Below, piece by piece: positions 7,989 through 15,298 of a DNA stretch of 64,000 bases. The first letter of the stretch is position 1; each line of letters begins with the position of its first letter. Under the pieces are notes generated by a model that saw nothing but the letters and a program-made list of their open reading frames with translations, made no database searches and was not told the DNA's origin. This DNA is from a virus, in the IMG/VR virus record IMGVR_UViG_3300048091_000425, one strand, 5' to 3'. Both the position numbers and the translations under genes were made by a program.

Positions 7989-8321
7989 TTAGGCTTGAGC
8001 GCCGTCGTAGTAACGCAGGTAATCGTAGATCGCTGTGTTCAGGTTGATTGCGAAGAACCTGGCAACAGTCGTGTAGCCATCGGATTCAAGGATCCCGAGC
8101 TTTGGATGTTTTGCATCGAGCTTGGCGAGAGCAGAAAAGATTTCCTCGGCAATATCGCCCCAGGTACGTTCGCCAGCTTTGGCGAATTCAAGCGCTGCGA
8201 CGAGCACCTCGTTGAGCTCTTTGACCACTTCATCATTGCCTTCCGGCAATCGCCAGTCGTCGTTGTCTGGAAGCGCAACCGTCAGGAGCAACGCGTTTTC
8301 TTTCTCGTTCAGTGTCGGCAT
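7989..8321 (-). CDS. Small acidic hypothetical protein
   Basis: 110 aa; RBS GAAGGA; own promoter at 8358-8386. Confidence 0.7.
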   Translation of the reverse strand: MPTLNEKENALLLTVALPDNDDWRLPEGNDEVVKELNEVLVAALEFAKAGERTWGDIAEEIFSALAKLDAKHPKLGILESDGYTTVARFFAINLNTAIYDYLRYYDGAQA

Positions 8322-12345: not shown

Positions 12346-12373
12346 ATATCTGAAGCAATTGGAGAAGCGCAGC

Positions 12374-13504
12374 ATGATTACTGCAGTTTACGCACTTTCC
12401 GGAGACCCTATTACTTTCGGTCATATTGACATCATCAACCGAGCCGCCGCTGGGTTTGATAATCTCATTGTTGGCCTTGGCGTAAACCCCAACAAAAAAT
12501 ACATGCTAACCCCTAATGAGCGGATAGCTGTTGCCAAACAATCGCTATCCCACCTCAATAATGTTGAGGTGATGTTCTTCGAAGGCCTGCTTGTGGATTT
12601 CGCATTTGAACAAGGTGCCACAATCATTGTTCGTGGCATCAGAAACGCCTCGGATGCAGTGGCCGAACAAGCCCTCGATCAGATCAATGGCTCTCAGATG
12701 AACATTGATACTTTTTTCATGTTTTCACGTTCCAAGCTTGCACATGTAAGTTCCAGCAACGTGAAAGCACTACAGGCCGAGAACGGACTCATTCATGAAT
12801 ATGTTCCGCTCCCAGTTAAGAAAATGCTCGAACGCAAGATCTCACACCAGCTTGTCTACGGGGTAACAGGCGTAATGGGATCTGGGAAATCATACGTTGC
12901 CGAGCAACTTGCTATCTATGCCGAGACACAACATGCGGTATCAGAAAGCAACCCGCTGGTTCACAACATTGAACTTGATAATCTGGCTCATCAAGTATAT
13001 GAATCAGATAAACCGGGCTACAAAGACATTCGTGAAAAAATCCAAAATCACTTTGGAACGCTAGACCGGTCAGAAATTGGGCAGATCGCCTTCGGCAGCG
13101 AGAACAGCAAGGAGCACGTTGACTTTTTAAACAACATTTTCAAAGACCCTGTCATGGTTCTGCTGCGTCAAGAACTACGTGGCAGGCAAGGCATCGTGCT
13201 GATTAATGCAGCCTTGCTTGTTGAGAGTGACCTGCTCAATCTCTGCAACAACCATGTAATTTTAGTCAACGCTGAAGACGCAGTGCGCCATGAGCGTCTG
13301 GTGAAATTCAGGAACATTGACCCAGTTGTTGCTGAAGAACGTATCAAACACATGAAAAGCAACAGCGCCAAGAGAGCGCAGATCAAGAGGTCTATTTCCA
13401 GCTCTCGCTTCGGTAATATTGTAGATTTTGACAATTCCTCAAGTAACCTTGAGATGATTGCCAATCTGTATGAACAGCTTAAAAATGAATACTTCGGAAA
13501 GTAG
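12374..13504 (+). CDS. coaD-coaE: Fused phosphopantetheine adenylyltransferase (CoaD) - dephospho-CoA kinase (CoaE)
   Basis: N-terminal DPITFGHIDII (HxGH), VRGIR, VSSS.VK; C-terminal GVTGVMGSGKS Walker A and INAALLVE. Confidence 0.9.
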   Translation: MITAVYALSGDPITFGHIDIINRAAAGFDNLIVGLGVNPNKKYMLTPNERIAVAKQSLSHLNNVEVMFFEGLLVDFAFEQGATIIVRGIRNASDAVAEQALDQINGSQMNIDTFFMFSRSKLAHVSSSNVKALQAENGLIHEYVPLPVKKMLERKISHQLVYGVTGVMGSGKSYVAEQLAIYAETQHAVSESNPLVHNIELDNLAHQVYESDKPGYKDIREKIQNHFGTLDRSEIGQIAFGSENSKEHVDFLNNIFKDPVMVLLRQELRGRQGIVLINAALLVESDLLNLCNNHVILVNAEDAVRHERLVKFRNIDPVVAEERIKHMKSNSAKRAQIKRSISSSRFGNIVDFDNSSSNLEMIANLYEQLKNEYFGK

Positions 13505-13613
13505 AACAACCTGCAATATAATTTTGGTCATTTACATGTTCGCGGCAGGCCTGTTGAAACCGGCTTCCTGACCACTGAATCAGAAGAAATCAAGCATCAA
13601 AAGGACAGAAAAT

Positions 13614-14096
13614 ATGGAACGGCTCAAAGGGTACTACCGAGTCAAATATGAAGGAATCTGGACAATAGCGGAATACAAACCGACTGTGAACAGCCGCCCA
13701 GGCCACTGGCTATGGGTCGACGGCGACATGTATTGCGAGGAGTTCGATGAGATCTCTGATCGGCGGATTCCAATGCCTGACGATCCTGAAGAGCTCCAGG
13801 TCGTCGCTGTTACCTCAGCAACGGCGCCAGAGCAGACCCTAGCCATCGCTCAGCCGGCCATCGAGGGAGAGTTAATGCCTCGGTACAAATTCACAGACGC
13901 GGAGATGCTGGACTACATTCAGCGCCATCACACGCTTCACAAAACAATCGGGTTTCTGTATGTCGTTGACGGGTACCACGCCACAGTCATGTGGGATGAT
14001 TCGCCCATGTCCGAGGATTTCAAAGGTGAGACATTGCGTGGAGCAATTGATGCAATGATGACAAACGGCGATATTATGACCCGACAAGGTCGCTGA
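13614..14096 (+). CDS. Phage-type hypothetical protein
   Basis: 160 aa ORF with RBS, ending ~190 bp before the CRISPR array. Confidence 0.6.
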   Translation: MERLKGYYRVKYEGIWTIAEYKPTVNSRPGHWLWVDGDMYCEEFDEISDRRIPMPDDPEELQVVAVTSATAPEQTLAIAQPAIEGELMPRYKFTDAEMLDYIQRHHTLHKTIGFLYVVDGYHATVMWDDSPMSEDFKGETLRGAIDAMMTNGDIMTRQGR

Positions 14097-14149
14097 ACAT
14101 CTTCAGTCACCTTCTTTCATCGACGGCCAATAGATACCGTGGAAAACTG

Positions 14150-14284
14150 AACCTTCGTTTTTACAGATAACCAGCGCATGCCTTTAAAAATAGGCTTTTG
14201 CGCAAAATCCGTGCAAACAAAGGTTAGAGGCAGAAACCCCTTATTCTGCCTTTGATTTAAAGGGTTTAATGCAATATTCTGTCA
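14150..14284 (+). promoter_or_regulatory. Type I-F-like CRISPR leader
   Basis: AT-rich; inverted repeat AACCTTCGTTT (14150-14160) / AAACAAAGGTT (14215-14225); hairpin AGGCAGAA/TTCTGCCT at 14228-14251. Confidence 0.6.
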
Positions 14285-14552
14285 GTTCACCACCGTGCAG
14301 GTGGTTTTGAAAATCATCAGCATCGACTTGTGGTCGAAGACCGTGTTCACCACCGTGCAGGTGGTTTTGAAAAAAGTGAGAGCTTGAAATAGACCTCTTG
14401 ATCTGTTTACCACCATCTAGGTGGTTTTGAAATCGCCGGTAGCAGGATGCTGGGGTATGAAGCGGTTTACCACCCTACAGGTGGTTTTGAAAAGCTACGG
14501 TGGTGATGGTACACGCCCTCCCATGTTCTCCACCTAACAGGTGGTTGGTAAT
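14285..14552 (+). CRISPR. Orphan type I-F-like CRISPR array, 5 repeats / 4 spacers
   Basis: 28-bp repeat GTTCACCACCGTGCAGGTGGTTTTGAAA at exact 60-bp period (14285, 14345, 14405, 14465, 14525); 32-bp unique spacers; 5-bp stem CCACC/GGTGG with 5-nt loop and 8-nt handle; degenerate trailer repeat. Confidence 0.93.
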
Positions 14553-14616: not shown

Positions 14617-14832
14617 ATGAAGACTTTCAGCATAAGCCAAGCAAAGAGACGGTTAACCAGGCTCGCGAAACTGGCCGCGACTGGCGAAGTGGTGATCATC
14701 ACAAAAGGCGGCAAGCCAGTCGCTCAACTGGTGTCGCTGCACTACGGCGAAGACCACATAGGGAAACTCACGCACCTAGCAGAAGTGGACTATCAGGTCA
14801 AAGATGTCCACTGGGCCGGCGACAAGACCTGA
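14617..14832 (+). CDS. Phd/YefM-family antitoxin with no adjacent toxin
   Basis: MKTFSISQAKRRLTRL...GEVVIITKGGKPVAQLV; strong RBS GAGGAGG. Confidence 0.8.
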   Translation: MKTFSISQAKRRLTRLAKLAATGEVVIITKGGKPVAQLVSLHYGEDHIGKLTHLAEVDYQVKDVHWAGDKT

Positions 14833-14842
14833 CGGGAAGTGT

Positions 14843-15298
14843 CTACACCAGACCGACGGCCTGCCCCTGCGCCGCCAGCGCATTCATCATCCAGGCACTC
14901 TCCGCGTTTCGCTTCGTTTTGTACGCAACCACATCCACCAGGCGCAGCCGGCGATGTTTACCGACCTTGGTAAACGGAATGACGCCCCGCTCTACCAGCC
15001 TGATCAGGTAAGGCCTGGACACGTTTAGCAGGTCAGCCGCTTCCTGTGTGGTCAGTTCGGCCTGTACCGGCACAACTTGAGCACCGTTACCCTTCGCAAT
15101 CTCCTCCAGCGCATGCTGAAGCAGCCAGAGCGCAATAGCCGGTACCTCGACCTCTCTTTCAACGTTTTCATCCAACAGGCGTATCCGGTGAGTGACTGCG
15201 CCCGTATCAAGCAGGTCACGCAGGGGTGGCAATGCCTTTTCAGCGGTTGCACGCTCGAAAGCGCCGGGGATTGTGTAAAGGGTTGGCATGGCAAGCAC
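14843..15298 (-). CDS. Excisionase-family (HTH_17) DNA-binding protein
   Basis: ELTTQEAADLLNVSRPYLIRLVERG.IPF.KVGKHRRL; the usual PIN partner is absent. Confidence 0.85.
   Translation of the reverse strand: MLAMPTLYTIPGAFERATAEKALPPLRDLLDTGAVTHRIRLLDENVEREVEVPAIALWLLQHALEEIAKGNGAQVVPVQAELTTQEAADLLNVSRPYLIRLVERGVIPFTKVGKHRRLRLVDVVAYKTKRNAESAWMMNALAAQGQAVGLV

Follow-up and report, generated by a model that had tools for sequence, protein, structure and literature searches.

We examined a 64,000-nt stretch of the IMG/VR virus record IMGVR_UViG_3300048091_000425 (the window; coordinates given without a locus label refer to this whole stretch). The window carries a short array of short palindromic repeats that are clustered and regularly interspaced (CRISPR), of a type I-F-like kind, less than 1 kb downstream of a coaD-coaE fusion gene. 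The second of its four spacers matches the coaD-coaE gene of related megaplasmids perfectly, including the protospacer adjacent motif (PAM), and matches the allele of its own replicon with three differences. Three megaplasmids of Pseudomonas show synteny with this region: P. silesiensis pPL1 (1.17 Mb), the plasmid of P. serbica IT-P366 (1.06 Mb), and pPLMAXa of Pseudomonas sp. PLMAX (0.95 Mb). The CoaDE protein encoded in the window is recorded on a contig of 1,077,129 bp. With a probability of roughly 0.62, we read the array as a satellite of the megaplasmid's own I-F system, in which spacer 2 directs Cas3 to sibling megaplasmids and the resident replicon is spared through seed mismatches.

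The mechanism would run as follows. The array would be transcribed from its own leader, and Cas6f would cut the transcript at the base of the CCACC/GGTGG hairpin in each repeat, yielding CRISPR RNAs (crRNAs) of ~60 nt with the 5' handle UUUUGAAA. These crRNAs would be loaded into a Csy1-4 complex whose genes would lie elsewhere on the same ~1.08-Mb replicon. The spacer-2 crRNA would then find the perfect, CC-flanked coaD-coaE protospacer of incoming pPLMAXa-type plasmids (31/32 positions in pPL1-type plasmids), and the recruitment of Cas3 would lead to degradation of the rival plasmid. The resident allele would be spared, being mismatched at seed positions 1 and 5 and also at position 13. Transcription, processing, loading, interference, and exclusion as the selected function are what we infer from the anatomy of the array, the alleles of its target, and the cas genes of the family, all of which are described below.

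Array anatomy and the allele-specific match of spacer 2

The array occupies positions 14285..14552 of the + strand. Five 28-nt repeats (R1 to R5, at 14285-14312, 14345-14372, 14405-14432, 14465-14492, and 14525-14552) alternate with four 32-nt spacers (S1 to S4, at 14313-14344, 14373-14404, 14433-14464, and 14493-14524) with a period of exactly 60 nt. R1 is identical to R2, both reading GTTCACCACCGTGCAGGTGGTTTTGAAA. R3 and R4 depart from this sequence mainly within the loop, and R5 is degenerate, which is the usual state of terminal repeats. The predicted hairpin of the repeat spans positions 5-21; its core, CCACC/GGTGG, is formed by positions 6-10 and 16-20, it encloses a 5-nt loop, and the handle UUUUGAAA lies on its 3' side. 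A 28-nt repeat with such a hairpin and an 8-nt tail has the geometry of a type I-F Cas6f substrate, and in the window the stem-loop does lie 8 nt before the 3' end of the repeat, next to spacers of 32 nt. The Rfam family CRISPR-DR4 aligned end to end with the repeat (33 bits, E = 2.4e-5; the gathering score is 35). Arrays were located with a purpose-made repeat scan; Tandem Repeats Finder missed them. Both the stem and the 3' handle are kept in R1 to R4 despite the changes in the loop, which argues for selection on the repeat as a putative Cas6f substrate.

The leader of the array was placed at 14097..14284 (+ strand) by homology with the leader of an orthologous mini-array in pPL1 and by a box common to the leaders of large arrays. 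The homology to the pPL1 mini-array covers the final ~60 nt. The box, CTTTAAAAAT(C)AGGCTTTT..GCGC, lies ~100 nt upstream, and it is also present in the large-array leaders of the P. serbica plasmid and pPL1. In a sister lineage, represented by contig L048 (L numbers are our labels for loci and contigs), the 188-nt leader differs at a single position (99.5% identity).

Spacer 2 (14373..14404, + strand) is the reverse complement of positions 13380-13411 at 29 of 32 positions, a level of match that occurred zero times in 100 shuffles of the window. The resident homolog of the protospacer thus lies on the minus strand and, with the complement of its PAM, spans 13380..13413; the plus-strand GG at 13412-13413 corresponds to a 5'-CC PAM on the protospacer strand. 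In type I-F systems, CC is the PAM, and the seed consists of spacer positions 1-5 and 7-8. The target is located near the 3' end of the coaD-coaE fusion gene, a backbone gene of this megaplasmid family. Its open reading frame (ORF) extends from 12359 to 13504, with a likely ATG at 12374 (12374..13504, + strand, 376 aa; TIGR01510 coaD, 140 bits; PF01121 CoaE).

The three mismatches differ in their effect on the protein. Position 1 corresponds to TTC/TTT in the codon for Phe346 and is synonymous, as is position 13 (TCC/TCA), whereas position 5, within the seed, corresponds to CGC/CAC and exchanges Arg for His at residue 345. Phe346 is invariant among the homologs compared. His345 is present in 16 of 18 other homologs, down to 70% identity, and the resident allele has Arg; judged from these homologs, the mismatch at seed position 5 is a derived His-to-Arg change. 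The GG complementary to the PAM forms codon positions 1-2 of Gly347, which is invariant in 20 homologs, and the PAM is therefore locked.

Ten coaDE alleles from relatives, with nucleotide identities of 92-99%, were compared at the protospacer. The CC PAM is kept in all of them (10/10). Spacer 2 matches the alleles of pPLMAXa and of L042/L043 (a 360-kb JGI metagenome contig and a Logan contig) at 32/32 positions. A single mismatch is found in the pPL1 allele (position 31; 31/32) and in the array-less allele L041 (position 1). The L045/L046 allele is mismatched at positions 9 and 31, the L047 allele at 10 and 22, the L044 allele at 9, 25, and 31, and the allele of the P. serbica plasmid at 7, 9, 10, and 31 (28/32). 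The mismatches at 1, 5, and 13 (29/32) characterize the allele of the window, which L039 and L040 share with 100% identity, and they recur in L048, whose coaDE is 95.4% identical. This combined state is confined to the array-bearing contigs, i.e., the window, L039, L040, and L048. The resident state at positions 5 and 13 was found in no allele outside of the array-bearing lineage, and the state at position 1 is shared only with L041. Carrier and target contigs come from neighboring metagenome accessions (3300046471 and 3300046499 versus 3300046500; SRR26076568 versus SRR26077544).

A first reading of the window, made from the sequence alone (the sequence-only reading), had described an I-F-like mini-array and had reported the 29/32 match of spacer 2 with its CC PAM, its three mismatches, and their effects on the codons. 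All of this was reproduced. As a check on its model, that reading had also named a related megaplasmid with a coaD-coaE allele that matches spacer 2 perfectly next to a CC PAM, and pPLMAXa is such a plasmid, as is the source of the 360-kb metagenome contig.

The resident target keeps its CC PAM and 29/32 identity to the spacer, and a crRNA with spacer 2 would be antisense to the coaDE mRNA. These features would suit an RNA that acts outside of immunity, either as a Racr-like decoy that sequesters Cas6f/Csy proteins of an I-F system in the host or as a cr-like repressor that binds the resident coaDE by partial complementarity; Racrs that mimic repeats and reside on mobile elements are known for type I-F (PMC10651486). 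We regard such a role as very improbable. Racrs are solitary repeat units, whereas the array in the window has a leader, regularly sized spacers of 32 nt, and, probably in cis, its cognate system. The cr-like regulators CreTA and CreR reportedly pair at the PAM-proximal end and carry their mismatches distally; in the present case it is the seed that carries mismatches, next to a matched distal part, which disfavors stable binding to the resident gene. Both versions were rejected on these anatomical grounds and on the perfect match of spacer 2 to an external target.

The cas genes and other arrays of the family

In the 64-kb window, tblastn searches with ten I-F Cas proteins of a sibling plasmid detected no cas genes. 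The sequence-only reading had called the array Cas-less; this holds for the window, but not for the family, as all three sequenced siblings carry cas3-csy1-4 modules. In the P. serbica plasmid, cas3 is followed by a repeat region and then by csy1, csy2, csy3, and cas6f, and the repeats belong to the same family as those of the mini-array. The Cas3 protein (961 aa) contains an HD domain and matches the Cas3f model with 561 bits; the match covers model positions 308-1072 of 1110, and the Cas2 part is missing. The same module, beside repeats of the same family, is found in pPL1 and pPLMAXa.

The Csy3 protein P0241 is recorded on a contig of 1,077,129 bp, the same size as the contig with the CoaDE protein of the window. 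P0241 falls into a cluster formed at 90% identity, and the representative of this cluster shares 98% identity with the Csy3 of the P. serbica plasmid. Two datasets, JGI 3300046471 and SRR26076568, both contain the mini-array locus with 100% identity and P0241 inside a cas3-repeats-csy1-4 module. The agreement in size, down to the base pair, and the identity of the samples strongly indicate that the Csy module resides on the window's own ~1.08-Mb replicon. The I-F machinery that the sequence-only reading had placed elsewhere on the replicon or in the host was found, together with the repeat family, on 3/3 siblings and, judged by the agreement of sample and size, is probably present on the replicon itself.

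The family contains further repeats and cas genes. The array between cas3 and csy1 (L050:4815-5786 and L022:8527-9498) has 14 degenerate repeats at a spacing of 41-143 nt, and many of the gaps are far too small to hold a 32-nt spacer. Its conservation between plasmid lineages is nevertheless 98%, and these irregular repeats may be a cr-like or otherwise regulatory set and not an immune array. Large orphan arrays with repeats of the same family are located at 852.4-855.0 kb of the P. serbica plasmid (L024) and at 300.2-301.7 kb of pPL1 (L035). In both, the CCACC/GGTGG stem is constant, the loop is different in nearly every repeat, and spacers are duplicated. One spacer is common to the two arrays at 29/32 positions; these arrays are therefore old and inherited. 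Searches of PLSDB and phages with the large array of the P. serbica plasmid returned only array-to-array similarity to pPL1.

A second I-F-like module in the P. serbica plasmid (365.6-373.9 kb; L023:9591-17882) has 27% identity to the first. It encodes a Cas3 of 1152 aa, a 563-aa protein without a family match in the position of Csy1, Csy2, Csy3, and Cas6f, and no repeat array was found near it within the 20-kb locus. pPL1 has a second Csy3 match at ~950 kb (L030).

History of the array site and the origin of spacer 2

In pPL1, the orthologous mini-array occupies the same site as in the window, between a gene for a 160-aa protein and a gene of the HTH_17 family, and it has three different spacers behind the homologous leader. 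The site is empty (~50-90 nt) in the P. serbica plasmid and in L044, and pPLMAXa has unrelated DNA there. The direct repeat CCTGT(C/T)CGACCTC flanks the pPL1 mini-array (L001:7760-7790 and 8040-8065) and is present as a single copy at the empty site of the P. serbica plasmid (L025:6700-6740). This short repeat may mark the point at which the mini-array entered or left the locus as a cassette.

The 160-aa ORF (13614..14096, + strand) had no match in Pfam and NCBIfam searches; it is shared by pPL1, L044, L048, and the P. serbica plasmid, and most members of the family have it conserved in the interval from coaDE to the array site. The HTH_17 (excisionase-type) gene (14843..15298, minus strand; PF12728, E = 2.5e-13) bounds the array site on the right; this flank is conserved, with synteny in pPL1, L044, and the P. 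serbica plasmid. Between the array and this gene, the window has a Phd/YefM-family antitoxin-like gene (14617..14832, + strand; PF02604, E = 2e-9). It is on the same strand as the array, begins 64 nt past the last repeat, and is convergent with the HTH_17 gene. No toxin partner was seen, and the phd gene is not at this site in pPL1 or the P. serbica plasmid.

L048 contains the leader and first repeat of the window, followed by a first spacer that starts with AAAGTGAGAG and corresponds to spacer 2; the contig ends there. Since the first spacer of L048 is spacer 2 of the window, and since R1 and R2 of the window are identical, spacer 1 was gained later, at the leader end. In the simplest reading of these sequences, this addition took place after the split between the lineages of the window and L048. 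The array would therefore have been a live substrate for adaptation.

The comparison with L048 also revealed a mosaic structure. The tract 12557-13456, which includes the protospacer, is 1-3% divergent, and the 3' end of the 160-aa ORF together with the leader (13857-14284) is less than 1% divergent. The block of ~400 nt between them (13457-13856), which comprises the 3' end of coaDE, the intergenic region, and the 5' part of the 160-aa ORF, is ~24% divergent. This pattern points to a recombination replacement tract; recombination appears to have taken place inside the locus and to have left the immune tract and the array in place. The mosaic fits the idea of a linked pair in which the array is the weapon and the mismatched coaDE tract, at a distance of 1 kb, is the immunity allele, comparable to a poison and its antidote. 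We put this idea forward tentatively and consider it rather unlikely.

The resident target homolog is only 963 nt upstream of the array in a replicon of 1.08 Mb. Under uniform positions, the chance of such proximity is ~0.2%. This proximity speaks for a history in which spacer 2 was acquired from the replicon's own ancestral coaDE, located in a hotspot for acquisition immediately upstream of an active array, and the resident gene then escaped by mutating positions 1 and 5 (and 13), with the targeting of siblings as a by-product. In the E. coli I-E system, hotspots for protospacers occur upstream of the CRISPR array (PMC10011333). The distribution of the resident states, exclusive to the array-bearing lineage at positions 5 and 13 and shared only with L041 at position 1, agrees with such a history. 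So does the PAM, which cannot change without altering the invariant Gly and would force escape into the seed. However, a single seed mutation would have been enough for escape, yet there are three changes, two of them synonymous, at a density in keeping with the divergence of the gene in its 3' part. The array-less allele L041 also has the G at position 1, no I-F Cas1 for naive self-acquisition was found in the siblings, and the same unexplained proximity exists in virus mini-arrays that target each other (PMC6858448). We therefore judge the origin of spacer 2 from the replicon's own ancestor to be unlikely. Self-acquisition changes the history of the array and not its present capability.

The sequence-only reading had presented the array as an exclusion weapon against sibling replicons, with a spacer taken from a close relative and a resident allele that escapes through seed mismatches. 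The predictions for the sequences, a matching sibling allele and I-F machinery in the family, were borne out; the spacer may have come from a relative or from the replicon's own ancestor. Two of the mismatches, at positions 1 and 5, do fall in the seed, and by the seed rule known for I-F the mismatches should suffice for immunity; statistically, they are indistinguishable from ordinary divergence between alleles. Mutations selected for escape were considered and found to be unsupported. Among 32-nt windows, the protospacer ranks within the top 6% by variability, the entire 3' third of coaDE being variable, and neither this rank nor the binomial test on private substitutions given below is significant.

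A different possibility is that the array is a decaying relic, orphaned and unexpressed or no longer loaded, and that the match of spacer 2 records a past encounter between related plasmids. The loops vary between repeat units, R5 is degenerate, and other arrays of the family are heterogeneous and partly irregular. No I-F adaptation genes were found in the siblings, a simple scan detected no sigma-70-like promoter upstream of the array on the + strand, and the corresponding site holds no mini-array in pPLMAXa, L044, or the P. serbica plasmid. Against decay stand the conservation of the stem and the 3' handle in R1 to R4 despite the changes in the loop, and a leader with 99.5% conservation across lineages that diverge by up to 24% in their flanks. 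Moreover, the gain of a spacer at the leader end postdates the split of the lineages, and spacer 2 is intact in both and still matches extant alleles perfectly. A relic is, in our estimation, quite improbable.

Several observations weigh against the exclusion of siblings by an I-F system of the megaplasmid itself. Divergence among the four plasmid alleles is ~5.6%, and drift alone would lead one to expect 1.8 mismatches per 32 nt, a value close to the observed 3. Two of the 15 private substitutions in the lineage of the window and L048 are inside the protospacer (binomial P = 0.066). The Csy1/Cas8f of the module is divergent (Pfam E = 0.003), and CC is assumed to be the PAM of this divergent Csy1. 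The repeats of the family arrays are highly heterogeneous, and the array adjacent to the cas genes is irregular, which can mean decay.

The adaptation genes are a further point on this side. Cas1 was not found in the P. serbica and PLMAX genomes, nor was a cas2-3 fusion of type I-F. The sole Cas1 in pPL1 closes an operon of seven genes, which by their sizes look type I-E-like (760-767.5 kb; L038:222-7476); if this operon is I-E, pPL1 would carry three CRISPR-Cas systems. The Cas3 also lacks the Cas2 part; nevertheless, the gain of a spacer at the leader end is evident.

The other spacers also count on this side. The sequence-only reading had proposed searching for targets of all four spacers, and spacer 2 alone yielded one, its perfect match in pPLMAXa. 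Spacers 1, 3, and 4 have no target with ≤3 mismatches in the P. serbica genome or pPL1, gave chance-level partial matches only in BLAST searches against PLSDB, and have no target in 401 Pseudomonas genomes (E ≤ 0.01; the phage collection was left out) or the PLMAX genome. Matches of 30/35 across the junction of spacer 1 and its repeat stem from one recurring sequence (E ~0.005 per genome) and were judged to be due to chance. The spacers of sibling arrays (sets of 35 and 54, allowing ≤7 mismatches) had no match in the window and the fetched loci, and no reciprocity was seen among them. The pPL1 mini-array spacers gave repeat matches only in the P. serbica and PLMAX genomes.

Relation to known systems and significance

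The closest parallel is provided by SPV1 and SPV2, viruses of Sulfolobales that carry mini-CRISPR arrays for which heterotypic exclusion was proposed and the proximity of array and target was left unexplained (Medvedeva et al. 2019, PMC6858448). As in these viruses, a short array preceded by a leader resides on a mobile element, a spacer matches a close relative of the carrier, and the orthologous array site has different spacers in two relatives (the window and pPL1). In both cases, the carrier's own orthologous locus has point mutations that should keep it from being targeted, and the targets are near the array. In contrast to SPV1 and SPV2, the carrier is bacterial and not archaeal, a plasmid of ~1 Mb and not a virus, and the array is of type I-F and has four spacers instead of one or two. 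The interference genes are found on the megaplasmid family itself and are not borrowed from the host, and no reciprocal targeting was found.

CRISPR-Cas systems of plasmids have been implicated in competition between plasmids (Pinilla-Redondo et al., bioRxiv 10.1101/2021.06.04.447074; for type IV, 10.1101/780106), and orphan plasmid arrays are short and thought to use Cas proteins in trans (10.1101/2021.06.04.447074). The window shares with such plasmid-plasmid targeting a CRISPR locus on a plasmid and a spacer that matches another plasmid of the same host genus. In that survey, however, type I-F was relatively more common on chromosomes than on plasmids. A further difference from the survey lies in the target, which in this case is an allele of a backbone gene that the carrier itself possesses, and discrimination would depend on three nucleotides.

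Pseudomonas megaplasmids of the pMPPla107/pBASL58 family (~1 Mb) have csy/cas3 loci, some of them judged incomplete, and, at a great distance from the cas genes, separate regions of repeats (Smith et al. 2019, PMC6482414). The plasmids described here resemble them in their size of ~1 Mb, their csy/cas3 loci, and their distant repeats. In the available part of that paper, the loci are catalogued without an analysis of spacer targets, whereas targets were analyzed here.

Relative to the chromosomal I-F systems of P. aeruginosa PA14 and Pectobacterium, the array has the same 28-nt repeat form (GTTCA...GAAA) with a 5-bp stem and a 5-nt loop at the same positions, the same spacer length of 32 nt, the CC PAM, and Csy1-4 with Cas3. 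It differs from canonical I-F in its stem (CCACC/GGTGG versus CUGCC/GGCAG), in its handle (UUUUGAAA versus CUAAGAAA), and in loops that vary between repeats. Also unlike canonical I-F, the Cas3 lacks the N-terminal Cas2 part, no cas1 is nearby, and several arrays are scattered over the replicon.

The use of CRISPR by a mobile element to exclude its siblings has already been described for archaeal viruses; the window offers a candidate bacterial example, which differs in the element, in the subtype, and in Cas genes that appear to be in cis. It would carry the paradigm of virus mini-arrays over to type I-F systems on bacterial plasmids. It also raises the questions of how spacers are gained on replicons whose relatives lack an I-F cas1 and why such arrays target neighboring DNA. 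If array and mismatched target do form a linked pair, then under frequent recombination only spacers tightly linked to a resistant target allele would persist. This would account for mini-arrays of mobile elements that aim at adjacent sites, and it would drive the divergence of alleles and an isolation between sibling megaplasmids that resembles incompatibility. The discriminating nucleotides, the PAM, and the weapon-bearing and susceptible lineages are all identified, and the exclusion of sibling megaplasmids is therefore directly testable.

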